Source: an uncultured bacterium
Lineage (GTDB): Bacteria; UBP4; UBA4092
Assembly (NCBI GenBank): GCA_963768165.1
Contig: CAVYHJ010000002.1
Span: 128,676-192,675 of the forward strand
Reading direction: 5' to 3'
Length of the DNA: 64,000 nucleotides
Position numbers and translations under genes: made by a program. The stretch's first letter is position 1; every line of letters starts with the position of its first letter. Below the pieces are notes generated by a model. That model saw nothing but the letters and a program-made list of their open reading frames with translations, was not told where the DNA came from and made no database searches. Shown here piece by piece: positions 2,829-41,800 of the stretch.

Positions 2829-2892
2829 TCCTTAAAGGCTATAGCAAAATAGATTACAGAATTCCAATTCATCGGCAATCCTATGGAGCCGA

Positions 2893-17622: not shown

Positions 17623-17625
17623 TTT

Positions 17626-19116: not shown

Positions 19117-19120
19117 ATCC

Positions 19121-19237: not shown

Positions 19238-19397
19238 GTTATACGATTGGGGTAACATTATTGTGTAACTCCAAATAAACAAAAGTGCTGTATAAAGCAT
19301 TGATTTTGTCATGTTTATATTTTTGTATTTGTTCTATCCATTTTGTTTTCAGTAATCTATAAGAAATCCGATAAATTGGGTATGCCTATTGCGGTAT

Positions 19398-19536
19398 ATC
19401 TATAGATGAACCAATTAAAACTTGTGGATGCTCATGCAATAATTTTTCTCCAAAAAGAGAAAAATAAACTATAGATTTCATTGGAGACAATTATTTGTTA
19501 GTATATACCAAGGATTTATATGGTTTGTCTATAGAT
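19398..19536. repeat. Copy B of the upstream direct repeat. It contains an internal insertion of about 25 bp relative to copy A.
   Basis: See copy A. Confidence 0.7.
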
Positions 19537-19589
19537 TCTAATTATTAATATGAAATTGTAAAGCGAAAACTAAATAAAGGGGACATACC

Positions 19590-22403: not shown

Positions 22404-22601
22404 TCCCTTGGAAATTTAATAACCTTTGGCCTTACCTGATACGATTGGATCATGAATGGGGAAAGTACCTACGGAGTAATAAAATGGTTTCCAAACGCAC
22501 CCTTGTCTTATTATCAATTTATTTTCTGATATAGAATTCTTTAAGTTGAATTTTTTACTATTCTATGACATATTTCTATTCAACTGAAAGGTGTTTTATT
22601 A

Positions 22602-23408: not shown

Positions 23409-23549
23409 CTTTTTTGAAGAATATATTTCGATCTGAGAGCTCAAATATAGCTCAAGATGGATTATTTATGGTTATAAAACAAATGAAGTATCAATGGAAA
23501 AGTGGGAGAAAAAGTGGTTTTGCCATCGTTGCGGAGAGGTGTTTGATTT

Positions 23550-24293: not shown

Positions 24294-24406
24294 AATAAAA
24301 AATATGTCCCGATATGAGAATCGGGAATAGATGTGGAAGAGGTTCCCGACGTCACAAAATAATTCTTCTACAAATGCAGAATTACTCCCCTTGGCTGAAA
24401 TCCGCC

Positions 24407-24430
24407 AGCTTTCTGCGACCGTAGAAAGTT
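24407..24430. promoter_or_regulatory. Imperfect operator-like palindrome AGCTTTCTGCGACCGTAGAAAGTT, a member of the AAACTTTCY-N8-RGAAAGTTT motif family.
   Basis: Inverted arms CTTTCT/AGAAAG with an 8-bp spacer. It lies 83 bp upstream of the perfect site. Confidence 0.4.
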
Positions 24431-24456
24431 TATAATACTAATCAACTCAGTCTTAG

Positions 24457-24640
24457 AGAAAACCTTTGACATTTGAGATCACTGAAAAAGTGACTTTCTC
24501 TATCTTTTTAAAAAACTTTCTGCAATTGCAGAAAGTTTATCTCCAATGAAATCAAGTGTTTAGAATAATTGTACGTTCGCACAATTATTATTTTCCACAT
24601 AAATTGGACTTTTTCAGAGGTCTCATTTGTCAAAGGTTTT
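24457..24640. repeat. Structured element of about 185 bp bounded by 32-bp imperfect terminal inverted repeats (AAAACCTTTGACATTTGAGATCACTGAAAAAG ... CTTTTTCAGAGGTCTCATTTGTCAAAGGTTTT). The perfect 26-bp palindrome lies inside it.
   Basis: The arms match at about 28/32 positions as reverse complements. MITE-like or long-hairpin architecture. Confidence 0.5.
24513..24538. promoter_or_regulatory. Perfect 26-bp palindrome AAACTTTCTGCAATTGCAGAAAGTTT, a candidate dimeric-regulator operator upstream of the GH-like gene triplet.
   Basis: Exact reverse-complement symmetry. A same-length related site AAACTTTCCACGGTAGCGGAAAGTTT occurs at 42012-42037 upstream of a prepilin gene. Confidence 0.5.
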
Positions 24641-24728
24641 TAGAATGATCTAGTCGAAGAAAATTATCCTCATCTCCACCGACGATTCTTTTCAAATCCC
24701 CTGCCATCCATGCTATACTTTTATAGTC

Positions 24729-25787
24729 ATGATGAGCTGTGCCCAACGACGAGTTATAATTCCTTCCTGTTTTCTCATCGTCCTATTTTTATCCGTCTCC
24801 GGTCATAGCGATTCTTTCACTCCTGTCTGGCAAAAAGGCATGTCTTATGTCCCCTGGAGTTGGAGTATCCTATCCACCACGGATTCAAATTCTTCCATCC
24901 AGATAATGTCTTCTGATTCAATCCAATGGGTCGCCCTGTGCGATTTTTGGTTTCAAGCCAATGGGTCATCCACAACCATCGGTCCGGATGAGTCACGATA
25001 TAGTGCCAGCACCGAATCGATTAAATATGCCATCGATCAAATTCATGCCAATGGAATGAAAGTCATGTTAAAACCTATGGTAGATTTGGATAATGGAGTT
25101 TGGCGCGCGTATATCACACCTTCCAATGATTGGTTTTCCAGTTACTCCGCCTATATCCAGTTTTGGTCAGACCTGGCCACTGAGAAAAATGTGGATATGC
25201 TTTGTATCGGATGTGAATTTAAAGATACCCAATCTTGGGATTCCAGTTGGCGCATGATCGCCGCCACCGCTCGCGCTCATTATTCCGGACCCATTACTTA
25301 TGCTGCCAATCATGACGATTTTAACTATGTCACGTGGTGGGATGCGGTAGATTATATTGGGATTGATGCTTATTTTGCTTTAACCAATACGGATACACCC
25401 ACCCTCGAACAACTCTCCTCCGCATGGGATAACACAGCAAATTTCATTGAATCTTTCCGGAATTCCAACTTTCCTACAGAACAGGTAGTGTTTACAGAAA
25501 TCGGGTATCAAAGCGAGGATGGAACCAATGAAACCCCTTGGAATACGACCGGGGGTGCCGTTGATACCGCCGAACAACAACAGTGTTATGAAGCGTGTTT
25601 TGAAGTCATGACTCAGCGAAATTGGTTTGATGGTATGTATTGGTGGAACTGGGAAACCAGCCCTACTGCCGGTGGACCAAATGATAACGGGTTTACTCCC
25701 CAAAACAAACCTGCGGAAGCTACAGTAAAATTGTGGTATTCCAAAACCATCCCTTTGGTTCCTGTTGATGATTGGTATAAGTATTAG
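24729..25787 (+). CDS. Secreted putative glycoside hydrolase, clan GH-A-like TIM barrel (paralog 1 of 3).
   Basis: Signal peptide. Candidate acid/base Glu in the motif CIGCEF and nucleophile Glu in VFTEIGY. The WRMIAATARAHY motif is conserved across all three tandem paralogs. Assignment to a GH family is an inference. Confidence 0.5.
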   Translation: MMSCAQRRVIIPSCFLIVLFLSVSGHSDSFTPVWQKGMSYVPWSWSILSTTDSNSSIQIMSSDSIQWVALCDFWFQANGSSTTIGPDESRYSASTESIKYAIDQIHANGMKVMLKPMVDLDNGVWRAYITPSNDWFSSYSAYIQFWSDLATEKNVDMLCIGCEFKDTQSWDSSWRMIAATARAHYSGPITYAANHDDFNYVTWWDAVDYIGIDAYFALTNTDTPTLEQLSSAWDNTANFIESFRNSNFPTEQVVFTEIGYQSEDGTNETPWNTTGGAVDTAEQQQCYEACFEVMTQRNWFDGMYWWNWETSPTAGGPNDNGFTPQNKPAEATVKLWYSKTIPLVPVDDWYKY

Positions 25788-25864
25788 AAAACCAAACACC
25801 GAGATATATCCTTTATCGTAATTTCCTATTCCCTTTTGTTCCTGTTATAATAATTTCCGCAGTT

Positions 25865-26905
25865 ATGAAATCAGCCGCGCGTAACATTACTCTCATCTCC
25901 ATTCTTTTAGTAATCCTTTTTATATCCAGTTCCAGCCAAGCCACATCTTTTCAACCTGTTTGGCAAAAAGGGGTATCCTACGTTGCCTACCGCTGGGCAA
26001 TGCTCACAACAACAACTTCAGATTCTTCGATTCAAATGATGGCATCCGATTCAGTCAATTGGGTTGCCTTGTGTATCAGTTGGATACAGGATAATGAAAC
26101 CACCACCATTAAATTTCCCGATGATAATAATTTACAAGCACAAACTAAAGCAATCAAATGTGCCGTCGACCGATTCCATGCCAAACATATTAATGTCATG
26201 TTAAAACCCATGATTAACTTGCGAAACCACAAATGGCGTGCTGCTATTGAACCATCGAATGCCTGGTTCTCCAGTTATTCTTCCTACATTCAGTTTTGGT
26301 CAAAACTGGCAACCCAGCAACATGCCGAAGCGCTGTGTATCGGTTGTGAATTCAGAAACACCCAGCCCTGGGATTCTAGTTGGCGGATGATTGCGGCGAC
26401 TGCTCGTGCCCATTATAAAGGACCCCTAACCTATGCGCCGAATTGGGATGACTATACCACCGTCAAGTGGTGGGATGCCGTGGATTATATCGGCATTGAT
26501 GCCTACTTTCCTTTGACGACAACCGTCCATCCAACGCTTTCCGAATTGTCTTCCGGATGGGCCCTTCAAGCGGATAATATTGAATCGTGGCGTAATGCCA
26601 ATTACCCTACCCGGCCCGTCATCTTCACTGAAATTGGATATTGCAGCGCCGACAGCACCAACATAACCCCGTGGGAAGGGCGGCTGGGTGACACCAACCC
26701 CAATATACAACGCGATTGTTACGATGCCTGTCTGGAAGTCATGACGCAAAGAAAATGGTTCTACGGAATCTATTGGTGGAGTTGGGAAATTAATCCAAAC
26801 GCCGGGGGAATACAAGATCACGGGTTCTCCCCGCAAAATAAACCGGCGGAAACTGTATTGAAGACTTGGTATTCCAAATCTTTACCTTTGACGAACATAA
26901 AATAA
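25865..26905 (+). CDS. Secreted putative GH-A-like glycoside hydrolase (paralog 2 of 3).
   Basis: About 55-60% identical by eye to paralog 1, with the same GCEF and FTEIGY motifs. Confidence 0.5.
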   Translation: MKSAARNITLISILLVILFISSSSQATSFQPVWQKGVSYVAYRWAMLTTTTSDSSIQMMASDSVNWVALCISWIQDNETTTIKFPDDNNLQAQTKAIKCAVDRFHAKHINVMLKPMINLRNHKWRAAIEPSNAWFSSYSSYIQFWSKLATQQHAEALCIGCEFRNTQPWDSSWRMIAATARAHYKGPLTYAPNWDDYTTVKWWDAVDYIGIDAYFPLTTTVHPTLSELSSGWALQADNIESWRNANYPTRPVIFTEIGYCSADSTNITPWEGRLGDTNPNIQRDCYDACLEVMTQRKWFYGIYWWSWEINPNAGGIQDHGFSPQNKPAETVLKTWYSKSLPLTNIK

Positions 26906-26974
26906 TTTTTTATTCTATTTTAGGAATCATCACCATTCATTCACATTACAAAACAACAAAGGGGACAATTTTTT

Positions 26975-28048
26975 ATGACGAATAAATACTTTAGATACGC
27001 CTGTGAACTTATCATACTGTTCTCATTTTTTGTCGGAACATACCCGCATGGACAAGCCGCTTCTTCAAATCCTGTTTTCCAAAAAGGGGTCTCTTACATC
27101 GGTTGGAAATGGGACGAGTTAACCTCTGCTGAATCCAATGGCGCTATCCAGCAAATGGCGGATGACTCCGTGAAATGGGTCGCGTTATGTGACTTTTGGT
27201 TTCAAGATGGTGCTAATGCCGTCACGATTTATTCGGATTCAACGAGACATAGTACCAGTACACCATCCCTTAAATATGCCATCCGCCAACTTCACGCACA
27301 CGGTCTTAAAGTCATGTTGAAACCTATGGTTGATTTAACCACCGGGTGGTGGCGCGCATCCATTCAGCCGTCTAATGAATGGTTTTCAAGTTATTCTTCT
27401 TATATCCAATTTTGGTCTGAGTTTTCAAAAGAAAATAACGTGGATATGTTATGCCTGGGTTGTGAATATAAACGTACTCAGTCTTGGGATTCCAGTTGGC
27501 GAATGATTGCAGCAACTGCCCGGTCTCATTTTAAAGGACCCCTCACTTATGCAGCCAACTGGGATGATTACACTACAGTCACTTGGTGGGATACTGTGGA
27601 TTATATCGGCATTGATGCATATTTCCCGTTATCCACCACCGAAAATCTAACTTTATCCGACTTGTCAGCATCTTGGTCTGCGAAAGCTGACACGATTGAA
27701 TCCTGGTTATACTCTTATTATTCCACCAAACCGGTCATCTTTACGGAGATCGGTTACCAAAATCGGAAGAACTCCTATATACGTCCGGCTTCTTATAGGT
27801 CGAGAAATGCAGTGGTCGACAATACCATTCAACAAAACTGTTACCAGGCCAGTTTTGATGTCTTGACGAAACGTCCCTGGTTTTCTGGTTTTTATTGGTG
27901 GCAGTGGGATACCAGTTCCACTTCCGGCGGACCTGATACCGTTTCTTTTACTCCTCAAAATAAACCGGCAGAAACAACTCTACGGGCATGGTATTCCAAG
28001 ACTCTTCCCCTGACTCAGAATACCCTAAAAACCAAGAATTCCAAATAA
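26975..28048 (+). CDS. Secreted putative GH-A-like glycoside hydrolase (paralog 3 of 3).
   Basis: Same conserved motifs (LGCEY, FTEIGY, WRMIAATARSHF). Confidence 0.5.
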   Translation: MTNKYFRYACELIILFSFFVGTYPHGQAASSNPVFQKGVSYIGWKWDELTSAESNGAIQQMADDSVKWVALCDFWFQDGANAVTIYSDSTRHSTSTPSLKYAIRQLHAHGLKVMLKPMVDLTTGWWRASIQPSNEWFSSYSSYIQFWSEFSKENNVDMLCLGCEYKRTQSWDSSWRMIAATARSHFKGPLTYAANWDDYTTVTWWDTVDYIGIDAYFPLSTTENLTLSDLSASWSAKADTIESWLYSYYSTKPVIFTEIGYQNRKNSYIRPASYRSRNAVVDNTIQQNCYQASFDVLTKRPWFSGFYWWQWDTSSTSGGPDTVSFTPQNKPAETTLRAWYSKTLPLTQNTLKTKNSK

Positions 28049-28093
28049 CGGTTTCGCTAGACGATTTTGCATAATCTACGCTAAACTCTCTAC

Positions 28094-28942
28094 ATGCTCA
28101 ATTCAGCCACTATCATTATTCCGGCGTATAATGAGGAACAATCTATCGGGCCGGTCATTGATGAGATTCAACAGGTATTAAAAAATGAAAACCTTTCCAT
28201 TCCCATCCTGGTTGTGGATGACGGGTCTACGGATAAAACCTCAGACATTGCCAAATCCAAACAGGTTCAAGTCTTTCGCCATGAAGAAAATCGTGGGTAT
28301 GGCGCTGCATTAAAAACCGGAATCCATCGCGCGACGACCGAATTCATTATCATTATGGATGCCGATAAAACCTATCCCGCGTCCGTGATTCCTCAAATGT
28401 TACAATACACCGAAATGTATGACATGGTCGTAGGGAATCGGAATACCAAGCCGTCCATGCGGGTTTTTGCCAAATGGTTCTTGGTTAAGTTGGCGAATTT
28501 CCTTGCCGAGACCAAAATCCCGGATTTGAATTCAGGATTTCGTCTAATCCGTAAATCTGCTTTGGAACGGTTTTGGTTTATCCTGCCCAATGGGTTTTCC
28601 TTCACGACCACCATTACCCTCGCTATGCTTTGCAACGGGTATGCGGTAAAATATATTCCAATAGAGTATCGCGAGCGTTCGGGCGTATCTAAAATCAGAC
28701 CGGTTCGAAATACGTGGCAGTTTTTGATTCTCATTATTCGGACAATTGTCTATTTTAACCCGTTGAGAGTCTTTCTACCGGTCGGGTTTATTATGATATT
28801 CGGCGGTATATTTATCGGCTTTTATACACATTTTGCTCAGGGCGGAGTTTATAAAGTAACCACAACTACCATGGTTATTGGCGGAGTTCAAATCCTGATG
28901 TTAGGCTTTTTAGCCGATCTCATCGCTAAAAAGTCGAAATGA
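28094..28942 (+). CDS. GT2 polyprenol-phosphate glycosyltransferase (GtrB/ArnC-like) with C-terminal TM helices.
   Basis: IIIPAYNEE...VVDDGSTDKT...DADKTY motifs, and two C-terminal TM segments as in GtrB-type enzymes. Confidence 0.75.
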   Translation: MLNSATIIIPAYNEEQSIGPVIDEIQQVLKNENLSIPILVVDDGSTDKTSDIAKSKQVQVFRHEENRGYGAALKTGIHRATTEFIIIMDADKTYPASVIPQMLQYTEMYDMVVGNRNTKPSMRVFAKWFLVKLANFLAETKIPDLNSGFRLIRKSALERFWFILPNGFSFTTTITLAMLCNGYAVKYIPIEYRERSGVSKIRPVRNTWQFLILIIRTIVYFNPLRVFLPVGFIMIFGGIFIGFYTHFAQGGVYKVTTTTMVIGGVQILMLGFLADLIAKKSK

Positions 28943-29062
28943 TACGGTAAATACAAGTTTAAATAGCAATTTATATTCGAAAATGAAGCGAGGCTAAAGT
29001 GGAGGGGGACTGGAATTGAAAAAAGCAATTCCAGTCCCCCTCCGTAACCAAATCGGTATAAA

Positions 29063-30475
29063 ATGAGAGTTCTTATACTCAATCCCCCGATGCTCAACGG
29101 GGTAATATATATGAAAGAACTGGGACGGTGCGGACGAAAATCCGTAGCGGGTGAGGTGTGGCCGCAAACCGGTTTGGGATATATCGCCGCCGTACTCCGC
29201 AAAGGCGGACATGAGGTCATGTTCATGGATTCCATGGCGATGGGATTTGATGTCGGCCAGTCCATTTACAAGATAGCCGCGTTCAAGCCTGAAATTGCTA
29301 TTTTGCATACCACGACCCCGACTTACAATAATGATGCGAAAGTGTTGGATTTGATTCAGAAACGAACGGGCGCATGTTGCGGATTTGTGGGAACTCATCC
29401 AACCGCGTTACCGGAAGAATCACTCAAGCAATCGTCCGCAGATTTTGTGATTGTCAGTGAAGTAGAAACGACTTTGCTCGATTTGTGTGACAACTTTAAA
29501 GGAGACTGGTCGAAAATCTTGGGACTCGCTTACCGCAAAGACGGAAAAATCTTACGCAATGGGGAGCGCCCTTTATTTCCCAACCTTGATGAATTTCCCT
29601 TTCCCGCACGCGACCTCATGCCCGTGGATAAATATAAAATGCCGTTCTTTGGCGACGAACCATTTATCACGGTAATCCCTTCGCGTGGCTGCCCGTTCCA
29701 ATGCACTTTTTGCCGTGCCGGAATGGTATGGGGTGAGAACGCGCGACACCGTTCCCCCGATAATATCTGTGATGAGATTGAAGAAGTCATTGCCAAATAT
29801 GGCATTCGCAACGTGGTCATGATGAGTGACACGTTGACTTTGAAAATGGATTGGATTGGAGCATTGGCGCAACGAATTATTGACAGAAAGATTAAGATTA
29901 AATGGATTGGCAATTCGCGCGTGGATACGGTTTCGCTGGAGTTGCTGAAAACCATGGGAAAAAGCGGTTGCCAGTTATTGTCCTTCGGGATGGAATCTGG
30001 TAATCAACAAATTTTGGACTCCTCCAAGAAACATATCAATCTCAAGCAGACCGTGCAGGGAATTCAATGGGCGAAACAAGCGGGCATTTTGACCTTTGGA
30101 TATTTTATCGTAGGTTTGCCTGGAGAAACTTGGGATACCATTAAGGAATCCATTGCGTTTGCCAAAGAGGCCGACCCGGATTACGTGAATTTTCATGTGG
30201 CAACACCCTTCCCCGGAACTGAATTGTATGAGATTGCCAAACGCAATAACTGGCTAATTACGGACGACTGGTCGCAGTATGAAGAAGAAGGGTCGGCGGT
30301 TATGCGCACCGAACACCTTTCTCCCGAAGAACTGGTCAAGGCACAGAAAATGGCGATGCGGGCATTTTATTTCCGTCCCGGCAAAGTCATGCAGGAATTG
30401 AAACGCGCTTTCTCCTCTCCCCGGATGTTCAAATCGAAAGTCAAAGCCGCAATACACGTGATGGCAGAGATTTGA
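29063..30475 (+). CDS. B12-binding domain radical SAM protein (class B radical SAM).
   Basis: An N-terminal cobalamin-binding Rossmann-like region and the radical SAM CxxxCxxC motif GCPFQCTFC. The C-terminal tail ...MFKSKVKAAIHVMAEI is duplicated as stubs downstream. Confidence 0.85.
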   Translation: MRVLILNPPMLNGVIYMKELGRCGRKSVAGEVWPQTGLGYIAAVLRKGGHEVMFMDSMAMGFDVGQSIYKIAAFKPEIAILHTTTPTYNNDAKVLDLIQKRTGACCGFVGTHPTALPEESLKQSSADFVIVSEVETTLLDLCDNFKGDWSKILGLAYRKDGKILRNGERPLFPNLDEFPFPARDLMPVDKYKMPFFGDEPFITVIPSRGCPFQCTFCRAGMVWGENARHRSPDNICDEIEEVIAKYGIRNVVMMSDTLTLKMDWIGALAQRIIDRKIKIKWIGNSRVDTVSLELLKTMGKSGCQLLSFGMESGNQQILDSSKKHINLKQTVQGIQWAKQAGILTFGYFIVGLPGETWDTIKESIAFAKEADPDYVNFHVATPFPGTELYEIAKRNNWLITDDWSQYEEEGSAVMRTEHLSPEELVKAQKMAMRAFYFRPGKVMQELKRAFSSPRMFKSKVKAAIHVMAEI

Positions 30476-30483
30476 TTTTCCTG

Positions 30484-30512
30484 TTGACAATCCTCATTTA
30501 GAGAGCTAACAT
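30484..30512 (+). promoter_or_regulatory. Sigma70-like promoter for peptidase paralog 1 (TTGACA, 17-bp spacer, TAACAT).
   Basis: Read from the sequence. Equivalent promoters precede paralogs 2 and 3 at the same relative position after the radical SAM stub. Confidence 0.4.
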
Positions 30513-30515
30513 AAT

Positions 30516-33500
30516 TTGCATTTAAATTTCCGAGGAGCGTGTTTCATATTTAGCAAAAGTTATCTTATCCTAGCAACAGTTCTTTTGTTCTCAACAGTTA
30601 GTTTGGTTTATGCGGGAAGTCCGTTGGACGGCATACAATGTAAACCGCCGGTACATATTGTCCATCGCCCTGTGGGTATTCAACCATTCACCGGTCCTGA
30701 TACAACAGCTCTATCCCCGTCCCAAGTCCGCGCGGCGTATAGCCTGCCTTCCACGGGGGGAAGAGGTACCATTGCGATTATTGATGCCTATGCTGATCCC
30801 AGTATTCAAAATGATTTCAATACATTTAGTTTGCAATATGGGTTACCTACCGCAACAGCCGCCAATTTTGAAATCCATGCGATGAGTACCACCATTGAAA
30901 ATGCTACTACATATGGTTGGAATGGGGAAGAATGCCTGGATACCCAATGGGCTCATGCCATCGCGCCCAATGCCAAAATATTGTTCGTGGAATGCATCAA
31001 TAATGGCACCGATTTATTGGCCGGGGTAATCTATGCCGCAAGCAGGTCGGATGTCGTGGCCATTTCCATGAGTTGGGGTCAGCCGGAATTTTCTGGTGAA
31101 AATATATATGATAGTTATTTTGTTAGTAATTATACTGCCACTTTCTTTGCCGGAACAGGAGACAGTGGAGCAGGCACCATTTGGCCGTCAGTTTCCCCCA
31201 ATGTAACCGCCGTCGGAGGGACGAATCTGTTTTTTAATTCCCTGGGTCAAGTTACCGCGGAAATAGCTTGGAGCGGTAGCGGTGGCGGGTTAAGCCAGTA
31301 TGAACCAGAATCAAGTTATCAAACCGGTTATGGTGTTCCCTCGACGAATGGATTCCGAGCAGTCCCGGATGTCTCTTATAATGGGGGCGGGGATTCTTAT
31401 GTTTCGGTCTATGACAGTTATCAAGAGGGTTGGATCGGCGTCTACGGAACCAGTGCCGGTGGCCCGCAATGGGCGGCTATCCGAGCTTTGGGCGGGAGTA
31501 ATATAAACAATACTTACCTTTATTCGCAAGCATCGTCCCCAGCTACATACGCCGCCGATTTCCGCGATATTACCAGCGGAAGTAACGGAACATGCGGATT
31601 TTATTGCAACGCTACCATTGGATACGACTATGTAACAGGACTAGGCAGTCCGCTGGGTAATGGATTGTTATCCATTGCAACTTCTCCAGTAGCAGGATTT
31701 TATGGTACTCCCACGATTGGGAACGCACCGCTGACAGTTGATTTTACAGATACCTCCGCCAATTATCCTAATTCGTGGAACTGGAGTTTTGGGGATGGGA
31801 GCACTTCCATTTCACAAAATCCATCGCATCTATATATGACAACGACTGAGGCTTTCTATACGGTTCAACTTATTGTGACCAATTCAGTAGGTACCAGCAC
31901 CTCCGCCCGGATAAATTATATTCATGCTTTGCCGCCACTGCCTCCGAGTGCGGGTTTCTATGCCAATCCTACGAATGGAGCAAGTCCGCTGGTTGTGAAT
32001 TTCATGGATACGTCTGCCAACAATCCGACAAATTGGACATGGACTTTTAGTGACGGGAGTACCGATTATTCACAAAATCCCATTCATACCTTTTACGCAT
32101 CCAATTCAACGGTTTATTATAGTGTTGGACTCGCAGTCAGCAGTCCGTATGGGTCAAGCTCCATTGTGCAATCAAATTATATAACGGTAGTGCCTGCGCC
32201 GACGATTGTTGTTCTGCCTACTTTCTTCAATAAGACGGTACAGCAGGGAACGATTACGTATGATTATCTGACCATTCAAAACACGGCAACGAACGGGACA
32301 ACTCTCAACTGGTCTATTTCTGAAAGTGTGACGAGTACTTTTAATAGAGTCGCGCAAAGTGGGAAAGAAAATTCCGTTGTTATTCAACTTCCGCAAAATA
32401 GCAAAGACTCGAATCCCAACCAATATACCGGTCCTCTTATACCGAGTGCCAATCCCGCCGCTTCAGACGGCGGATGGCAATATCAAACGGGATTGAATAA
32501 TGCTCGAAGCCGTGCCGCTGCTGGAACAGTGAATGGAAAAATTTATATTATTGGTGGATGGAGTTATCTCGGATCTACTATAACAAATAGTGTGGAAATG
32601 TTTGATCCCAACACCAAGCTTTGGACAACTAAAGCCAATAAACCCACAGCTGTTGCCAATATCGGATGCGGTGTGATTGGCAATAAAATATATGTTCCCG
32701 CAGGATTTGATTCCACTTTCAACCATTCAAATGTATTGGAGATTTACGATACTCAATTTGATTCATGGACAACCGGTTCACCGGTTCCTGTCGCAGTTTC
32801 CGGCGCGGCGGTTGCGGTTGTGAACAATAAATTATATGTGATGGGTGGCAACACGGAATCCGGTGAAACTAATTCGGTATATGAATATGACCCAGTGGGA
32901 GATAGCTGGTCGCAAATATCTTCCATGAACTATGCCTGCGGATATCTTGGCGCGGCAGTGGTAAACAATGAGATTTATGCGGTGGGCGGTTGGGATAACA
33001 ATAACCTAAATATGGCTTATTGTGAACAATATAATCCAACGAATGGTACTTGGACAATCGAAACACCCATGAACCTTGCGAGGGGAGATTTGGGGGTATG
33101 CTCTGATGGTTACTATATTTATGCCATTGGTGGAGGTGGTATTTGGACGAATTTCACCAGCGTTGTTGAACGATTTGATCCAAATATAGACACCTGGGTG
33201 ATGTCTACTGGTGTCGTACCTTTCTTAAACGTAGCTCGAAATGCGTTGAGTGTAGCTGTGAATAATGGAACGATTTATGCGATTGCTGGCTGGAACGGGA
33301 GTGCTTTAACAACCAATGAAGTATTAAGCGTAGATGTTCTCAATTGGCTGGATGAAAATCCCAATTTCGGTTCCACCAACAACGAAGGTGGATTTAGCCT
33401 TGTGACCGTAACATTTGATGCTACAAACTTACCCGAAGGAAGTACCACAGGTTGGATAGGAATTATTAATAACGACCCGAACAATAACCCTGTGATTATC

Positions 33501-33617
33501 CCTGTGAATCTAACCGTTACCCTGCCTGGAGTTAACGATTGGATGCAATATGCGAGAGATTTGCAAAATACCACTATACAGGTTCGTGTGCCGGAAGAAA
33601 TACGGAAGAACGAGTAG
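30516..33617 (+). CDS. Secreted S53 (sedolisin)/S8-like serine peptidase with two PKD domains, a six-blade Kelch beta-propeller and a conserved C-terminal tail.
   Basis: Sedolisin-like motifs: EE.LD..WAHAIAP.AKI (Glu/Asp) and GTSAGGPQWAAI (Ser). Two PKD repeats (PLTVDFTDTS..WNWSFGDGS). Six Kelch repeats (GKIYIIGGW, NKLYVMGG and similar). The C-terminus reads DWMQYARDLQNTTIQVRVPEEIRKNE. The start codon is uncertain: the track start 30516 is TTG, and the position homologous to the paralog-3 start is ATA 30546, downstream of a GAGGAG RBS. Confidence 0.75.
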   Translation: MHLNFRGACFIFSKSYLILATVLLFSTVSLVYAGSPLDGIQCKPPVHIVHRPVGIQPFTGPDTTALSPSQVRAAYSLPSTGGRGTIAIIDAYADPSIQNDFNTFSLQYGLPTATAANFEIHAMSTTIENATTYGWNGEECLDTQWAHAIAPNAKILFVECINNGTDLLAGVIYAASRSDVVAISMSWGQPEFSGENIYDSYFVSNYTATFFAGTGDSGAGTIWPSVSPNVTAVGGTNLFFNSLGQVTAEIAWSGSGGGLSQYEPESSYQTGYGVPSTNGFRAVPDVSYNGGGDSYVSVYDSYQEGWIGVYGTSAGGPQWAAIRALGGSNINNTYLYSQASSPATYAADFRDITSGSNGTCGFYCNATIGYDYVTGLGSPLGNGLLSIATSPVAGFYGTPTIGNAPLTVDFTDTSANYPNSWNWSFGDGSTSISQNPSHLYMTTTEAFYTVQLIVTNSVGTSTSARINYIHALPPLPPSAGFYANPTNGASPLVVNFMDTSANNPTNWTWTFSDGSTDYSQNPIHTFYASNSTVYYSVGLAVSSPYGSSSIVQSNYITVVPAPTIVVLPTFFNKTVQQGTITYDYLTIQNTATNGTTLNWSISESVTSTFNRVAQSGKENSVVIQLPQNSKDSNPNQYTGPLIPSANPAASDGGWQYQTGLNNARSRAAAGTVNGKIYIIGGWSYLGSTITNSVEMFDPNTKLWTTKANKPTAVANIGCGVIGNKIYVPAGFDSTFNHSNVLEIYDTQFDSWTTGSPVPVAVSGAAVAVVNNKLYVMGGNTESGETNSVYEYDPVGDSWSQISSMNYACGYLGAAVVNNEIYAVGGWDNNNLNMAYCEQYNPTNGTWTIETPMNLARGDLGVCSDGYYIYAIGGGGIWTNFTSVVERFDPNIDTWVMSTGVVPFLNVARNALSVAVNNGTIYAIAGWNGSALTTNEVLSVDVLNWLDENPNFGSTNNEGGFSLVTVTFDATNLPEGSTTGWIGIINNDPNNNPVIIPVNLTVTLPGVNDWMQYARDLQNTTIQVRVPEEIRKNE

Positions 33618-33638
33618 TTAATTGTGTTTGCCGGTTCC

Positions 33639-33693
33639 CCCAAATGCTTAAATCCAAAATCAAAGCCGCGATACATGTCATGGCGGAGATATA
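33639..33693 (+). pseudogene. Stub of the 3' end of the B12-radical SAM gene (encodes MLKSKIKAAIHVMAEI*).
   Basis: About 80% nucleotide identity to 30421-30475. The differences are almost all synonymous. Confidence 0.7.
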
Positions 33694-33704
33694 GTATTTT
33701 TTTG

Positions 33705-33733
33705 TTGACTTGTCCTCAGAAACGACCTACAAT
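33705..33733 (+). promoter_or_regulatory. Sigma70-like promoter for peptidase paralog 2 (TTGACT, 17-bp spacer, TACAAT).
   Basis: Read from the sequence. Confidence 0.5.
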
Positions 33734-33785
33734 TTTATCTAACAAAAACGGATTATTGAAGGGTAAATTTTAAAGAGAGCGAGTT

Positions 33786-35027
33786 ATGCACCCTAGGAAA
33801 TCCATAATTTTAATTGTCTCCCTTTGCGCCATCATAACCATTGTCACACAGAGCGTAGTATCTGCCCAAAGTCCCTCGTCGGGACGTCCGATGTATCCTC
33901 CGATACATTGGGTTGATTTGGGACCGATTCAACCGTTAGCCGTTTCTCCGCCATTCAATCCCGCCACCATTCGTGCGGTGTATCAGTTACCGACGACCGG
34001 CGGGTCGGGAACCATAGCCATTATTGATGCCTATGATGATCCCAGTATCATGCACGATTATTATACTTTTTGTACGACCTTTGGACTGCCGACCGCAACA
34101 TCTTCTAATTTTGAATTGCACAAAATGAGTTCCAATATTACAACGGATAATACCGGCAGTTGGGAAGGTGAAGAAGCACTGGATGTCGAATGGGCGCACG
34201 CCATCGCCCCGGAAGCCAAAATCTTGTTTGTGGAATGCACCTCGAATGATAACAATGATTTATTGGCGGGAGTCACCTATGCCGCTAATAGGTCGGATGT
34301 GGTCGCAATATCCATGAGCTGGGGCGGCGAGGAAATCGCCAGCAATACCACATTGGATTCCTATTTTATCAGTCCTTATGGAGCGACTTTTTTCGCCTCC
34401 TCAGGGGATGATGGAACGGAAGTCCAATGGCCCGCGGTCTCGGTCAATGTGGTTGGTGTCGGCGGGACTCAGTTGAGTATAACGTCCACGACTACAGAAA
34501 TCGCATGGAGTGGGAGCGGCGGAGGGTTAAGTAAATATGAAAAGGAACCCTCTTATCAAACAAGTTATGGGGTTCATTCCACCCAAGGGTTCCGCGCAGT
34601 CCCTGATGTTTCATATAATGCTTCCCCTAATTCTTCTGTTTTAGCCTACAACACGTTTATGTATACAGGATGGGGCGGGGGTTCTGGAACTAGTGCCGGG
34701 TCTCCGCAATGGGCGGCGATTCGGGCATTGGGCGGAAGTAATATCAATCACACGTATCTTTATTCTCAGGCAACATCGCCGACAACCTATGCGAAAGATT
34801 TTCGGGATATTACCTCCGGCTATAATGGTCCAGGAGGGTTTTATGAAACAGCAACGACAGGATACGATTATATCACCGGATTGGGAAGTCCCTTGGGCGG
34901 AGGATTATTACCCTCGGTCGCCGTCGAGGATTGGATGTTTTATTCGGAGGATTTACAAAATACTCCTATGCCGATTCACCTGCCAAAAATCACTACCCAC
35001 CCTGAAGGAATAAAAAAGGATGAGTAA
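33786..35027 (+). CDS. Secreted S53/S8-like serine peptidase, paralog 2 (catalytic domain only), with a conserved C-terminal tail.
   Basis: Signal peptide and the same catalytic motifs (EEALDVEWAHAIAPEAKI, GTSAGSPQWAAI). The C-terminus reads VEDWMFYSEDLQNTPMPIHLPKITTHPEGIKKDE. Confidence 0.75.
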   Translation: MHPRKSIILIVSLCAIITIVTQSVVSAQSPSSGRPMYPPIHWVDLGPIQPLAVSPPFNPATIRAVYQLPTTGGSGTIAIIDAYDDPSIMHDYYTFCTTFGLPTATSSNFELHKMSSNITTDNTGSWEGEEALDVEWAHAIAPEAKILFVECTSNDNNDLLAGVTYAANRSDVVAISMSWGGEEIASNTTLDSYFISPYGATFFASSGDDGTEVQWPAVSVNVVGVGGTQLSITSTTTEIAWSGSGGGLSKYEKEPSYQTSYGVHSTQGFRAVPDVSYNASPNSSVLAYNTFMYTGWGGGSGTSAGSPQWAAIRALGGSNINHTYLYSQATSPTTYAKDFRDITSGYNGPGGFYETATTGYDYITGLGSPLGGGLLPSVAVEDWMFYSEDLQNTPMPIHLPKITTHPEGIKKDE

Positions 35028-35100
35028 GGTAATTGGAAAAAAAATCCAAAGCAATATGAAAAGGAATAAAGGGTAGCCATACTTAGGAAACATCTCATAC

Positions 35101-35252
35101 CCGAAGATTTGGTGAAAGGACAGAAAATAGCGATGCGGGCGTTTTATTTCCGTCCCGGCAAGGTAATGCAGGAACTCAAACGTGCGTTCTCCTCCCCTAA
35201 CATGTTTAAATCCAAAGTCAAAGCCGCCATACACGTGATGGCGGAAATCTAA
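35101..35252 (+). pseudogene. Stub of the 3' end of the B12-radical SAM gene (about 50 codons: ...EDLVKGQKIAMRAFYFRPGKVMQELKRAFSSPNMFKSKVKAAIHVMAEI*).
   Basis: About 85% nucleotide identity to 30325-30475. The amino-acid sequence is nearly identical, with mostly third-position changes. Confidence 0.75.
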
Positions 35253-35260
35253 TTTTTTTG

Positions 35261-35289
35261 TTGCCTAACCCAAGAAAACGTACTATACT
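35261..35289 (+). promoter_or_regulatory. Sigma70-like promoter for peptidase paralog 3 (TTGCCT, 17-bp spacer, TATACT).
   Basis: Read from the sequence. Confidence 0.45.
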
Positions 35290-35298
35290 TTTATAGAG

Positions 35299-36570
35299 TT
35301 GAGATATACGCATGTAAGGATATTTTACCCCAGGAGGGCGATTATTGTGTTTACCAGAAAGTCACTAATCCTACTTACCACGCTATTTCTATCCACGGTA
35401 AATTTGGTTTATGCAGGAAGTTTATTGGATGGCATACAATGTAAACCTCCGGTTCGTATTATAACGGGTATTCAACCTGATGTTGTGAACTATTTTGCAG
35501 CCCCGGCGGACATCCGTAATATCTATGGTCTGCCCTCCACAGGAGGGACGGGAACCATTGCGATTATTGATGCCTATGATGATCCCAGTATTCAAAATGA
35601 TTTCAATACCTTTAGTCTACAATACGGGTTGCCTACCGCTACGGCCACGAATTTTGAAATCCATAAAATGGGTACACCTATTGCGCTTGCGACTAATGGC
35701 AACTGGAATGTAGAAGAAGATCTGGACGTTGAATGGGCTCATGCTATCGCACCCAATGCCAAAATACTATTTATTGAAGCCACATCCGCTAACGGGAATG
35801 ATTTATTAGCGGGAGTTACGTATGCCGCCAGTAGGTCGGATGTAGTGGCTGTTTCCATGAGTTGGGGTTCTCCAGAATTTGCTGGTGAAAACACTTACGA
35901 TACCAGTTTTATCAGTCCCTATGGCGCCAATTTCTTTGTCTCCTCAGGAGACGACGGTACTGAAGTTCAATGGCCGGCAGTTTCCGTCAATGTCACCGCC
36001 GTTGGAGGGACTTCAGTGACTCTTACTGGTGGAGGTTCCTTTGTTTCGGAAACCGCCTGGAGTGGAAGTGGCGGTGGGTTAAGCCAGTATGAAACGGAAC
36101 CAAGTTATCAAACCACTTACGGGATTCCTTCATCTCTTGGATTTCGTGGGGTTCCAGATGTCTCGTATAATGCAGATGGTAATAACACCGCTTTTATTGT
36201 TTTTATTAGTTTAGGATATACACCAGGGTATTATGGAGTCGGCGGAACCAGTGCCGGTACGCCGCAATGGGCAGCTATCCGAGCTTTGGGCGGAAGTAAG
36301 ATAAACAATACCTATCTTTATTCGCAAGCATCGTCTCTATCCACCTACACCACTGATTTCCGCGATATCACCACAGGAACCAATAGTGGGACTCACGGAT
36401 TTTATACCAAGGCCACTGTTGGATATGATTATGTTACAGGATTAGGCAGTCCTTTGGGCAAGGGATTATTACCCTCGGTCGCCGTCGAGGATTGGATGTT
36501 TTATTCCACGGAATCACACAATACTCCCCTATGGTTTGGTCAACCCAAAGAAATTCGGAAAAGCGAATAA
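35299..36570 (+). CDS. Secreted S53/S8-like serine peptidase, paralog 3 (catalytic domain only), with a conserved C-terminal tail.
   Basis: Same catalytic motifs. The likely true start is GTG at 35347, preceded by a CAGGAGGG RBS, giving the signal peptide (M)FTRKSLILLTTLFLSTVNLVYA. The C-terminus reads VEDWMFYSTESHNTPLWFGQPKEIRKSE. Confidence 0.75.
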   Translation: MRYTHVRIFYPRRAIIVFTRKSLILLTTLFLSTVNLVYAGSLLDGIQCKPPVRIITGIQPDVVNYFAAPADIRNIYGLPSTGGTGTIAIIDAYDDPSIQNDFNTFSLQYGLPTATATNFEIHKMGTPIALATNGNWNVEEDLDVEWAHAIAPNAKILFIEATSANGNDLLAGVTYAASRSDVVAVSMSWGSPEFAGENTYDTSFISPYGANFFVSSGDDGTEVQWPAVSVNVTAVGGTSVTLTGGGSFVSETAWSGSGGGLSQYETEPSYQTTYGIPSSLGFRGVPDVSYNADGNNTAFIVFISLGYTPGYYGVGGTSAGTPQWAAIRALGGSKINNTYLYSQASSLSTYTTDFRDITTGTNSGTHGFYTKATVGYDYVTGLGSPLGKGLLPSVAVEDWMFYSTESHNTPLWFGQPKEIRKSE

Positions 36571-36709
36571 GACAAGAATTAATTCTGATTTTTTAATTAA
36601 ATCCTTTCAAAGAACTCAACTTCCTTTCAAAAGACAGGCAATTCTCTGCTAGTTTTGCATGATGGAACTAATTTTGGAAACCGTGCGTCCTATATATTAA
36701 AGGAGAACA

Positions 36710-38473
36710 TTGGCTATGAAATATGCAAATGGAACCCGAAACGTTTTCTCGACCCAATTTGGTGGGATGCTCTGCTCTATACTATTAATAGTATTCTTAG
36801 GATATGTATTTCGACCTACAATTGCGATAGGACAGGTACAAAATCAAACAGTAACATCCAATAATAACAATGAAAAGCATCCAGAACCAGCACCACGTTC
36901 TGAACCCGCCCCGCGCCAAGAGCCTGCCCCACGCCAAGAAACTCTACCGCGAGAAATACAGAATCCCAGACCTATTACACAACCTTACCCTTATATTCCT
37001 CCTGAACTCAGCCGTGAACCGGAACCAATACAGGTGCCTATCCAAATTCAACCCGAACGACCTATTAATCCGGTTCAACCTCAACCACGACGGCCTTTAC
37101 CGAATCCACCCGTACAACCGACACCTACTCCTAGAAATCCAACCCGACCGGTAATCCCCCCCTTACCTAGAAGAACTGGTATAGTAGTGAATCCAGGTTA
37201 CTTTTGGGATTACAATGCAAACGACTATGGTACGCCTGTACCGGAACCATATCCGGTACCCGAACCTTACCCGGTTCCTGAAGAAATACCTGTACCTTAT
37301 CCGGTACCCACAGATGGTTCCTATCCTGTACAGCAAGATCAATCACAGCCGCCCGCCGAAGATATGGGTACGCCAGATTATGATTATGTACCACCTGCCA
37401 ACACACCCGAAATTACCAGTATGCAACCTACGATACCGAAAACTTTTCAATCTCTTGTGGAAGGGAGCATAGCGGAGTTCCGGACGGCGGGATTACGCGG
37501 AACGGAACCTCTTTACGGTTCTTTGGCATACTATCTTCTGCCGGATAAGCAACCTATTGCCGGGTGGCAGATTGTTGTGAGAGATTTTGCATTCGACATT
37601 CCTGCCAGTACACCGTTGGGTCTGGTACATATTGGAGCACGAGCCCCAGTAACCTTTACGGTAAATTACGACCGGAGTACTGCGGTTGCTAAAACTGTTT
37701 TATTGCGGGTCTACGTACCGTTATATCGGAAGTCTTATGATGTTGTTGGCAAAGCCAGTCTCTATGGTTCGGGATATCCTTACCCACTATTTAAAATGGG
37801 TTTCACGCTCGAACCCAACCTTGCCAGTATCTCGAAACAATACCATATCCATTTGTCTGGAAAATTCGACCAGTTCCCAATTGAATTAAGCGATATGACC
37901 ACTCTCATCCAACAGTTGGACGATGCGGATTCCGATGTTCGTGAGACTGCCATGTCTCAATTAATCAATATTGGACGTCCGGCGGTACCCGCACTCATGA
38001 ATGCGTTAAAAAATCCGGAGACAGAGGCCCGCAGAGACAGGCTGCAAGAAATTATCAACCAATTAACGGGCGTCAAACCACTAAGTGCAAAATGGGTCGG
38101 CGGAAATCGAGGAAGTTATATATTTAATTACAATGTCGAAGTGCCTGAAATCGATAGTCCTTGGAGTACCCAGATATACGGTCTGCATTTTATTGTCGGT
38201 ACAGACGACATTTCTTTGATTGATCAAACTCACAATAAAATTACTACGTCCCTGCCTGCCGGTTGGACTGGTAAATATGACCCTGACCAGGGAGAAATCA
38301 TTTTCTCGTCCAATAAAACCCCCTTGGTTCCAGGCACAGCGTACTCTATCAAAATTCGCACGGAACCCATTAACAAACAAAATCCCGGTCTTATGGGTTG
38401 GTACTATACCGATAAAGAAGGCAAAAAAATTGGAGACGCACAAGTAGCCCCCGGACCTGTCTTTTTAAAATAA
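36710..38473 (+). CDS. Secreted proline-rich protein with a HEAT/PBS-lyase-like repeat region.
   Basis: Signal/TM segment, tandem EPAPRQ and PEPYPVP low-complexity repeats, and a HEAT-like segment (DDADSDVRETAMSQLINIGRPAVPALMNALKNPE). Confidence 0.45.
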   Translation: MAMKYANGTRNVFSTQFGGMLCSILLIVFLGYVFRPTIAIGQVQNQTVTSNNNNEKHPEPAPRSEPAPRQEPAPRQETLPREIQNPRPITQPYPYIPPELSREPEPIQVPIQIQPERPINPVQPQPRRPLPNPPVQPTPTPRNPTRPVIPPLPRRTGIVVNPGYFWDYNANDYGTPVPEPYPVPEPYPVPEEIPVPYPVPTDGSYPVQQDQSQPPAEDMGTPDYDYVPPANTPEITSMQPTIPKTFQSLVEGSIAEFRTAGLRGTEPLYGSLAYYLLPDKQPIAGWQIVVRDFAFDIPASTPLGLVHIGARAPVTFTVNYDRSTAVAKTVLLRVYVPLYRKSYDVVGKASLYGSGYPYPLFKMGFTLEPNLASISKQYHIHLSGKFDQFPIELSDMTTLIQQLDDADSDVRETAMSQLINIGRPAVPALMNALKNPETEARRDRLQEIINQLTGVKPLSAKWVGGNRGSYIFNYNVEVPEIDSPWSTQIYGLHFIVGTDDISLIDQTHNKITTSLPAGWTGKYDPDQGEIIFSSNKTPLVPGTAYSIKIRTEPINKQNPGLMGWYYTDKEGKKIGDAQVAPGPVFLK

Positions 38474-38660
38474 TTTGTACTGGTGATCCCCGCATCATCC
38501 CCACGGTTTTTAGAGATTCTCAGGTAAGAAGAATGGGTAGAAATAAATAATTTGTCCCACTGCCATTTAATTGGTTGAGTTGACGGATAGTTTGGATTTC
38601 TGGTAATATATTTATCTTTGCCCTTTTCAAAGAAAATACATTTCAAGGAGAAAAATACGC

Positions 38661-39818
38661 ATGGCTAAAAATTTTTTATTTACCTCGGAATCTGTCACGG
38701 AAGGCCATCCTGATAAGGTTTGTGACAATATTTCCGATGGGATACTTGATGCTCTGTTTGCGCAAGACCCGAACAGCCGCGTCGCGGTAGAAACCCTCGT
38801 AACCACCGGACAAGTGGTTGTCGCAGGAGAAGTTACCACCAAAGCGTTTGTGAATATCCCTAATATTGTGAGAAATATCATCAAGGAAATCGGATATGAT
38901 GATTCATCCACTGGGTTTGATTACCATAGTTGCGGAGTTCTCAACGCGATTCATGAACAATCGCCCGATATCGCTATGGGTACTAATGATAAAGTCGGTG
39001 GTGCCGGTGACCAGGGCATGATGTTCGGATACGCTTGCAAAGAAACGCCCGAATTAATGCCTGCGCCTATTTCTTTTGCTCATAAATTATCCAAACGTCT
39101 TACCGAAGTCCGCAAAAAAGGAATTCTCAAATATCTCCGGCCTGATGGAAAAACTCAGGTCACCATAGAATATCAAAATGGTAAAATGAAACGGGTTCAT
39201 ACCGTTGTCATCGCCGCCCAGCATGACCCGCATGTCAAAATGAGCAAGCTTCAGGAAGATATTAAAAAGCATGTCATTCAAAAAGTAATCCCCGCCCGTC
39301 TACTAGATAAAAAAACCATCTATCACATCAACGCCACCGGACGGTTTGAAGTCGGTGGTCCCCACGGAGACACCGGATTAACCGGACGCAAGATCATCGT
39401 GGATACTTACGGCGGTTGGGCGTCTCATGGCGGTGGCTGCTTCTCCGGAAAAGACCCGACGAAGGTTGACCGCTCTGGAGCTTATGCCGCACGCTATGTT
39501 GCCAAGAATTTAGTGGCTGCGGATATTGCCGACGAAGTGGCTATTGAACTTGCCTATTGTATCGGAGTACCGGAACCCGTCTCTATTGAAGTGGATACCA
39601 GAGGCACAGGTATTATTTCAGATGAAGAAATCGTCAAACTTATTGAACAGCATTTCGATTTGACCCCCAGAGGAATCATCACGACTCTCAAATTGCGCCG
39701 CCCGATTTATCGTAAGACCGCCGCCTATGGCCATTTCGGTCGCCATGAAGAAGAATTTACCTGGGAAAGAACAGATAAAGCCGCCGCTTTGAAAAAAGCT
39801 GCCGCGAATTTGATATAG
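38661..39818 (+). CDS. metK: S-adenosylmethionine synthetase.
   Basis: Canonical MetK motifs ([19 protein letters not shown], the GGGAFSGKD-like loop). Confidence 0.95.
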
Positions 39819-39843
39819 CAAATTGATGAAAACACAATTCTTT

Positions 39844-41151
<1,308 letters not shown>

Positions 41152-41254
41152 ACCACCTAAATTCAAAACATATTCAGAAGCTAAAAAGCTTTGTACGAAT
41201 GTACAAAGCTTTTTTATTTAACTGATTTTATTGAAACTGAAACAAATTAAGGTA

Positions 41255-41800
41255 TTAGGGGCCAAAACGGATAATGTCGCCGCCACTAAGCGTTCCGTTG
41301 GTCGGGTCATAGAGAATAGTTGCTTCATTATCAGTTAAATCGGGCCCGTAACTCCAAATGACCCATTGTGCTGTTGGCTGGGGAATACCGAGAGTTGTCG
41401 TTCTATCATATACCTCACCTGGAGAAAAATCTTCGGTAAAATAATAATATGGCAGTAAAGGATTGGGGCTCGGATTATTGATTCGTGATTGAGAAAAAAT
41501 ATCGAATGGAAGAGATGAGAGATAAGCGACCGGGGTGGTCAAATAGATGGGAGTAAAATGTTCATATTCCACAGTCGCGTCAAAAGGATTATTATAAGTG
41601 GGATAGGTGTTGTTGTCGGTTTTGTAACTTTCCAAAGCCAGGGCAATGGTTTGCATTTCCGCCTGGACTCTAGCCACCTTTGAGCGGATTTGCGCGTTGC
41701 GAAAATTGGGTAACGCAATCGCGGAGATTATGGCAATAATCGCTACCACAATCAATAATTCGATTAATGTGAAAGCTCGTTCGTTAAATAGCCGGTGCAT
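41255..41800 (-). CDS. Prepilin-type N-terminal cleavage/methylation domain protein (type II secretion pseudopilin / type IV pilin-like).
   Basis: The N-terminal motif RAFTLIELLIVVAIIAIISAIALPNF is the classic class III signal plus N-methylation helix. Confidence 0.8.
   Translation of the reverse strand: MHRLFNERAFTLIELLIVVAIIAIISAIALPNFRNAQIRSKVARVQAEMQTIALALESYKTDNNTYPTYNNPFDATVEYEHFTPIYLTTPVAYLSSLPFDIFSQSRINNPSPNPLLPYYYFTEDFSPGEVYDRTTTLGIPQPTAQWVIWSYGPDLTDNEATILYDPTNGTLSGGDIIRFGP

Follow-up and report, generated by a model that had tools for sequence, protein, structure and literature searches.

Integrating islands and phages can insert into a tRNA or protein gene at its end and bring a replacement for that end with them, and partial gene copies are also found as relics at the borders of tandem duplications and cassettes. 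Here, we describe a locus with repeated gene ends in a stretch of 64,000 nt (the window, whose numbering is used throughout) from an uncultured bacterium (GTDB lineage UBP4; UBA4092; contig CAVYHJ010000002.1 of assembly GCA_963768165.1, positions 128,676 to 192,675 of the forward strand). An intact gene for a B12-binding (class B) radical SAM enzyme (rSAM) is followed by three genes for peptidases of MEROPS family S53 (P1, P2 and P3). The 3' end of the rSAM gene is repeated twice, ahead of P2 (stub 1) and ahead of P3 (stub 2), as found by open reading frame (ORF) listing, repeat finding and codon alignment. On balance, we lean towards a reading of the stubs as non-coding relics of rSAM 3' ends, in which the adjacency of rSAM and peptidases is positional and the stubs preferably stem from stacked segments of sister lineages.

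With gene-fragment relics at duplication borders the stubs share a partial 3' copy of a neighbouring gene at the left edge of each unit, the lack of a 5' part and of a start of their own, and in one case a junction only few bases past the stop of the previous unit. They differ from such relics in showing coding-type conservation (ratio ω of nonsynonymous to synonymous rates, dN/dS, of 0.03–0.08) amid saturated non-coding DNA. For the greater part of their divergence, therefore, the stubs did not evolve neutrally. Integrating elements also give an intact gene, inserted DNA and a leftover gene end, with copies that differ like alleles of different hosts and with several stubs after serial insertion. 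In contrast, the units described here measure only 1.5–3.3 kb, hold one gene each, and the last of them has no trailing stub. A protein-by-protein Pfam scan, limited to 18 neighbouring proteins of the window, detected no integrase or recombinase, and the tail hairpins, with z-scores from -1.3 to +0.35, do not resemble a structured recombination site.

The stubs are in-frame ends of the rSAM gene

Both stubs are in the rSAM frame and terminate at the equivalent codon, the three stops being different (TGA, TAG and TAA). The tail peptides quoted in the original prediction, MFKSKVKAAIHVMAEI, MLKSKIKAAIHVMAEI and MFKSKVKAAIHVMAEI, were checked and are correct; the nucleotide identity of the tails is 79.6–81.5%. 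Searched with a degenerate 41-nt pattern of the tail, the window gave three hits and 100 shuffled sequences gave none. The codon-by-codon alignment, with stops at the same codon, establishes the stubs as true rSAM 3' ends in a conserved frame with near-identical peptides, as had been proposed. Of the extents given at that time, the existence of two stubs stands, while the length of stub 2, put at 152 bp, has to be revised: it is longer (Table 1) and perhaps begins at 35052. No further rSAM fragments are present in 30476–36750, where only residues 453–470 and 405/417–470 are represented. Codon-degenerate scans for the tail peptide in the sets genome_contigs and metagenome_contigs, from both of which the source species is absent, gave no match.

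Of the 162 bases compared between stub 2 and the rSAM gene, 30 are different: 5 at the first codon position, 3 at the second and 22 at the third (binomial P = 9e-6). For stub 1 the corresponding counts are 2, 1 and 8 (P = 0.009), so that the predicted excess at third codon positions is confirmed for both. Computation of dN/dS by the NG86 method gave a dN of 0.078 and a dS of 1.18 for stub 2. When 30 random substitutions were simulated in stub 2, a mean of 20.5 residues was altered and a stop arose in 64% of the trials; the observed outcome, with six altered residues and no stop, was matched by 0 of 20,000 simulations. The 165 nt of stub 2 are also free of indels, although the spacer just past the stop ranges from 8 to 10 nt.

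Like a neutral pseudogene, the stubs show partial homology without the 5' region. The even spread over codon positions and the stops and indels of a neutral pseudogene, however, are not found in their conserved parts, and only the patch at 35052–35087 looks decayed. A simple tandem duplication within the genome, after which the stubs were neutral ever since, is thus barely credible. Unequal recombination would indeed give a unit such as the one seen here, consisting of tail, promoter, peptidase and a short 3' flank with TAATTG. With a dS of about 1.1, on the other hand, such a history predicts some 0.5 substitutions per site at each of the three codon positions, plus stops and indels, whereas a dN of 0.08 and no stop or indel in 165 nt are observed. 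The codon-position test refutes it unless the dS dating is grossly wrong.

Other explanations of the repeats were considered and rejected. Antisense ORFs extend over all three tails, but their first codon position coincides with the sense third position, and coding on that strand is therefore not conserved. Read-through or frameshift fusion of the stubs to the peptidases is not compatible with the frames: stub 1, which begins 20 nt past the stop of P1, is in the -1 frame with respect to that gene, and stub 2 lies in the P2 frame behind two stops. Gene conversion of the stubs from the resident tail disagrees with an identity of only about 81%. A terminator or structured RNA in the stubs was dismissed, as the palindrome CCGCCAT-N7-ATGGCGG is perfect in stub 2 only and the fold z-scores are those given above; the T-run is 8–10 nt away from the stem. 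A terminator scan gave nothing on the + strand. In Rfam searches no family reached its gathering score anywhere in the window (1–64000), and there is no cobalamin riboswitch near the B12-dependent enzyme.

Divergence of the tails compared with the nearest relative

Contigs of relatives are labelled L001, L004, L010 etc. The nearest relative found, L010, is a 4-kb contig from another run; an intact rSAM gene is represented there by its last 165 residues. This gene is followed by a peptidase-type promoter, one peptidase and then an unrelated gene on the opposite strand, with no extra rSAM copy. Over 164 codons, the rSAM proteins of L010 and the window are 97% identical (dN 0.017, dS 0.94). When the 40 final codons are compared, the window gene, L010 and stub 2 are all equally distant from one another: third positions differ at 16, 15 and 16 sites, and each pair differs at a single residue, codon 454, which is different in every lineage. 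The stubs and the intact L010 ortholog differ from the resident gene end alike, with a dS of about 1 and ω of about 0.02–0.04. A derived Glu423 is common to the window gene and L010, while stub 2 retains the ancestral Asp. A mosaic origin of the 5' part of stub 2 from an L004-like allele was also considered and rejected, since the counts (8 versus 15 differences in 62 nt, by eye) are too small.

The dS is 1.10 between P1 and its L010 ortholog, about 1.0–1.1 between P1 and P3, and about 1.05–1.18 between the tails. As the dS of the tails matches that of the peptidases, tails and peptidases diverged together, at about the depth of the L010 species split. Saturation is seen in the non-coding DNA next to the stubs; in the promoter spacers, for instance, 7 of 17 positions match. 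In residues 432–470 of stub 2, by comparison, codon positions 1 and 2 show three changes in 78 sites, all of them in the hypervariable codon 454, and without this codon 0 changes in 76 sites. From 0 of 76 versus about 0.5 substitutions per site per lineage we infer that the neutral period of the stubs, if they are neutral now, took up less than roughly 8% of their divergence. Since the divergence accrued under purifying selection, the stubs must go back to intact rSAM genes rather than to a fragment that had never been under selection. Purifying selection during the divergence of the tails, as originally claimed, is hence upheld, the coding-type pattern requiring intact rSAM source genes.

Origin of the array

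In the history that we prefer, each stub would be the left edge of a unit of promoter and S53 peptidase that was added behind the conserved pair of glycosyltransferase (GT2) and rSAM genes, where synteny breaks down. Each tail would have diverged as part of an rSAM gene that was still intact and under selection, which would explain the synonymous differences and the retained stop position. The cutting of the stubs would be young relative to their divergence. Segments of rSAM tail, promoter and peptidase presumably came from sister lineages with an L010-type arrangement and may have been joined in a tandem stack through recombination, illegitimate or by single crossover, at a locus of fast turnover. 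We favor such stacking of alleles because it accounts for a divergence like that of orthologs and does not require that three redundant rSAM genes were kept. Alternatively, the source could have been extra rSAM copies in the same genome that were deleted later.

The latter resembles the history put forward in the original prediction as the simplest one: an in-genome array of complete units of rSAM and peptidase, under selection for a long time, from which two rSAM copies were deleted, with a pathway link between the two enzymes. Its intact rSAM sources and the movement of the stubs together with the peptidase units hold; as a whole, this history is possible but not the simplest, and we consider it rather unlikely. 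It agrees with the demand of the coding-type divergence for intact source genes, with the equal dS of tails and peptidases, and with the order in L010, where rSAM is also followed by a peptidase. However, three redundant rSAM copies would have to be kept at an ω of about 0.03 for a dS of about 1 and across the L010 split, and a clean loss would be needed in L010, which has one peptidase and no extra rSAM copy. In addition, two recent deletions would both have ended within the final 12% of the gene (165 of 1413 nt), for which the probability is about 1.4% if end points are uniform, and no other rSAM remnant is left in the array.

Several observations weigh against the stacking of sister-lineage segments. 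No donor lineage with an rSAM gene followed by a P2-type or a P3-type peptidase was found, and two independent recent events are required. Moreover, stub 2 is unevenly preserved. Its possible 5' part, suggested by tblastn and an in-register test, is in register with rSAM residues 405–416 (19 of 36 nt identical, empirical P = 2e-4 for this register), where residues 410–416 alone are not significant (P = 0.2) and the homology comes mainly from 15 A/G-rich bases. In residues 417–431 there are four changes at codon positions 1 and 2, one of them at the near-invariant Ala427. From the ATG at 35133 onwards (residues 432–470) the sole amino-acid change is at codon 454. The contrast between the decayed 5' patch and the 3' part is significant (Fisher's test, 8e-5). 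A fresh cut predicts uniformity, and ongoing selection on a shorter ORF fits these data at least as well. Finally, a recognisable Shine-Dalgarno motif precedes only 15 of 44 genes in the window, i.e. about a third, and its absence at the ATG codons of the stubs is therefore no bar to translation.

A simple tandem duplication with its boundary inside the rSAM gene, whose 3' parts are still translated and under purifying selection today, would thus be conceivable; we regard it as quite unlikely. The products would have 39–47 residues (stub 2) and 16 residues (stub 1), all ending in KSK(V/I)KAAIHVMAEI. Such translation would account for a 5' patch that is decayed and contains a stop, next to a sequence without change after the ATG at 35133 save codon 454, and for the lack of indels in 165 nt despite the variable spacer of 8–10 nt after the stop. 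It would not require the coincidence of two recent events, and AAAGGA is located 12–17 nt ahead of the ATG at 35133, a spacing used by other genes of the window. Against it, the product lengths of the two stubs are very unequal, no Shine-Dalgarno-like motif precedes the common ATG at codon 455 in either stub, and no promoter was found upstream of the stubs. A search with the 54-residue peptide of stub 2 gave no short stand-alone homologues among 1.84 billion representative proteins, and peptidase units in other contigs work without a stub. The homology of the 5' patch, on which the argument from decay depends, rests mainly on the 15 A/G-rich bases mentioned above. That the stubs are small genes exapted from the C-terminus of the enzyme and selected at the amino-acid level, with decay of the untranslated 5' remainder of stub 2, appears a shade more doubtful again.

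Layout of the locus and assembly support

The features of the locus are compiled in Table 1. An independent Logan assembly (L061) is 99.99% identical to the window over 24596–34931, with one mismatch in 10,336 nt, which confirms the order rSAM, P1, stub 1, P2. That rSAM–peptidase loci of co-occurring strains were stitched together by the assembler is very improbable. Other peptidase arrays do exist in the sample (contigs L009 and L061 stem from one sequencing run); the order from rSAM to P2, however, is reproduced in L061, the junctions lie outside of repeats able to mislead an assembler, and the source contig has a length of 1.26 Mb.

Table 1. Positions of the rSAM gene, its repeated ends and the peptidase units in the window.
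Feature	Position	Strand	Evidence or remarks
GT2 glycosyltransferase, 282 residues	28094..28942	+	Pfam Glycos_transf_2
B12-binding (class B) radical SAM gene (rSAM), 470 residues, intact	29063..30475	+	Pfam domains
rSAM 3' end, residues 417–470 and stop, parent of the stubs	30311..30475	+	Repeat finding, codon alignment
Promoter-like site of peptidase 1, TTGACA-17-TAACAT	30484..30512	+	8 nt past the rSAM stop; homologous to promoter of third L009 peptidase
Peptidase paralog 1 (P1): S53 catalytic domain, 2 PKD, Kelch propeller, common C-terminal tail	30516..33617	+	
Stub 1: rSAM residues 453–470 and TAG stop, 18 codons	33638..33694	+	43/54 nt match
Promoter-like site of peptidase 2, TTGACT-17-TACAAT	33705..33733	+	Resembles L010 and L006 promoters
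Peptidase paralog 2 (P2), 413 residues, S53, signal peptide	33786..35027	+	
Possible decayed 5' part of stub 2 (rSAM residues 405–416), in-frame TAA at 35067	35052..35087	+	
Stub 2: rSAM residues 417–470 and TAA stop, 54 codons	35088..35252	+	Codon alignment
Promoter-like site of peptidase 3, TTGCCT-17-TATACT	35261..35289	+	
Peptidase paralog 3 (P3), 407 residues from GTG after GGAGG	35347..36570 (ORF opens 35299)	+	P0121 = 407 residues, 100% identity

The peptidases and their promoters

P3 matches kumamolisin (1gt9, residues 7–354, E = 1.3e-17) and sedolisin (E = 4e-9) over the whole catalytic domain. Its residues Glu78, Asp82, Asp164 and Ser278 align with the motifs EEDLD, GDDG and GGTSA, which are also present in P1 and P2. 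These matches, with the Glu, Asp, Ser triad and the oxyanion Asp aligned as in sedolisin and kumamolisin, bear out the S53 label, and S53 homologues of the peptidases are named "S53 family peptidases" by NCBI. In contrast to the described enzymes, the peptidases of the window have a C-terminal tail of their own and lack the pro-kumamolisin activation domain. The catalytic domain begins about 45–50 residues from the N-terminus, the stretch between signal peptide and catalytic domain being only about 45 residues long, and a Pfam scan of P2 and P3 gave no family at E <= 0.01. The tail has the pattern (V)EDWM.Y...NT...(E/G)I(R/K)K.E-stop (33537–33617, 34929–35027 and 36490–36570, as well as L010 1944–2093) and may serve as a signal for sorting or processing. 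The two PKD domains and the Kelch propeller of P1 are placed between the catalytic domain and this tail.

The three paralogs of the window are not monophyletic in the peptidase tree. P1 groups with the L010 peptidase (92% bootstrap) and P3 with L009c (95%), the third peptidase (2164–3065) in the run of three on L009. The closest known relative of P2 anywhere is P3 (62%). Outside the window, the most closely related arrays of peptidases are those of L005 and L006, which lie behind RlmN and RNase R. Comparison of L009c with 30476–31400 and 35253–36180 of the window revealed a mosaic, since its promoter, 5' untranslated region and signal peptide are 73–83% P1-like and its body is up to 97% P3-like. 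This mosaic demonstrates active recombination between peptidase units and indicates recent gene conversion among their loci. In L006 (6709–7895), the middle peptidase is called as two genes (287 and 108 residues) and is probably a frameshifted pseudogene, which fits birth-and-death turnover.

A promoter-like TTGAC(A/T)-17-TAnAnT sequence after a T-run precedes nine peptidase genes in five contigs, be it behind rSAM, RNase R or another peptidase, and the peptidase units outside the window carry no stub. Since the promoter is present whatever lies upstream, it belongs to the peptidase unit and rSAM sequence is not needed. A role of the stub as a required upstream promoter element was rejected for the same reason, i.e. 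homologous promoters behind RNase R or a peptidase without a stub. Concerning the window itself, a TTGAC(A/T)-17-TA(N)A(A/C)T promoter had been described after each stub. The sites are present, but the third -35 box reads TTGCCT and the first -10 box TAACAT.

The canonical start codon of P1 is lost. The ATG of L009c aligns with ATA at 30546, which is located 8 nt after GAGGAG. The GTG equivalent to the start of P3 is out of frame in P1 and runs into a TAG, and the TTG at 30516, which is the one start given by the ORF listing, lies right against the predicted -10 box. Translation probably begins at the ATA at 30546, or P1 may be poorly translated.

The rSAM gene and its conserved neighbours

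The rSAM protein contains the domains PF02310 (B12-binding; 45.1 bits, gathering score 32.1) and PF04055 (Radical_SAM; 92.4 bits, gathering score 29.5). The cysteines of the CxxxCxxC cluster motif (Cys210, Cys214 and Cys217) are invariant in 23 homologues, in agreement with a class B enzyme. Its nearest named relative is from a UBP4 genome. The best NCBIfam match is HpnJ (TIGR03471), for which the score of 269.3 bits against a cut-off of 577.6 does not permit assignment to this family. Contraction of the sugar ring in a glycosylated hopanoid has been proposed as the reaction of HpnJ, the glycosylated lipid being made by a partner glycosyltransferase (PMC9204698). The HpnI/HpnJ system and our locus have in common that HpnJ is the best named match and that a GT2 gene is the neighbour, here in a cluster of GT2, GT-C (PMT_2) and TMEM260-like genes. 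They differ in the score of 269 versus 577.6 bits and in the GT2, which does not resemble HpnI: its best NCBIfam match, below the cut-off, is AglJ/polyprenyl-phosphate hexose transferase-like. Furthermore, no hopanoid genes were seen. An HpnJ-like role on a glycosylated lipid would, by inference, fit the conserved GT2 neighbour.

This GT2 of 282 residues is found directly upstream of rSAM in 9 of 9 close orthologs with upstream sequence (L001, L002, L004, L007, L008, L011, L012, L013 and L045; 55–84% identity) and also in seven loci at about 50% identity. Most of the close orthologs share the cluster GT2, PMT_2 (GT-C), GT2, rSAM. Downstream, the region 3' of rSAM is different in every relative examined. 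In the close orthologs it holds pilin-like genes, ilv genes or others and never a peptidase (none at 69–84% identity). An rSAM homolog was present in 55 loci, of which 38 include 1.5 kb or more of downstream sequence, and an S53 gene follows rSAM in one of these 38 only, namely in L010 with its one peptidase.

From the co-duplication, a functional coupling of the rSAM enzyme with the peptidases had been deduced, possibly in a modification-and-processing pathway. The coupling is contradicted by the 37 of 38 rSAM loci without a peptidase, by the GT2 as the conserved partner and by the peptidase arrays at RNase R loci; the proposed co-occurrence of this rSAM subfamily with S53 genes comes down to the pairing in L010. 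A search of relatives for intact pairs of rSAM and peptidase in tandem thus yielded a single pair, but neither a tandem of pairs nor an extra rSAM copy there. The pathway receives no support either, as no conserved co-occurrence, no SPASM or RRE domain in rSAM and no precursor-like gene were found, and the rSAM models for ribosomally synthesised and post-translationally modified peptides (RiPPs) scored far below their cut-offs. As far as gene order can tell, the adjacency of rSAM and peptidases appears to be positional, without a shared pathway, and rSAM seems to belong with the upstream glycosyltransferases.

Two larger insertions are apparent when the surroundings are compared with relatives. 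In 16906–28942, the genes for a GT2 of 234 residues, a PMT_2-like GT-C, the GT2 of 282 residues and rSAM, contiguous in relatives, are interrupted by about 9 kb. The inserted DNA encodes a papain-like C1 peptidase with lectin and LVIVD repeats (19590–22403), two unknown proteins and three tandem glycoside hydrolases of family GH113 (24729–28048), and represents a second array of secreted hydrolases at the locus. On the other side, 36710–41800 contains genes for a proline-rich HEAT-repeat protein of 587 residues, metK (38661–39818), ahcY (39895–41151) and a pilin-like N_methyl gene (41255–41800, minus strand). In relatives, this pilin-like gene comes immediately after rSAM, and consequently about 10.8 kb are inserted here. 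The vicinity of the SAM-cycle genes metK and ahcY to rSAM may be a coincidence.

Conclusions

The observation of a duplication together with flanking sequence stands, while the inference of a pathway does not. The locus is a readable evolutionary relic, i.e. another case of a known phenomenon and not a new system. It calls for caution, because co-duplication is no proof of pathway coupling; the conserved partner of rSAM is the upstream glycosyltransferase. If the stubs should turn out to be translated, they would be small proteins born from the tail of an enzyme. More generally, codon-position patterns in gene fragments can date a rearrangement, in this case indicating that the fragments were part of intact, selected genes for most of their divergence and were severed from them only late. 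This dating points to stacked diverged alleles or the late loss of paralogs at a fast-changing locus of secreted hydrolases in an uncultivated bacterium.

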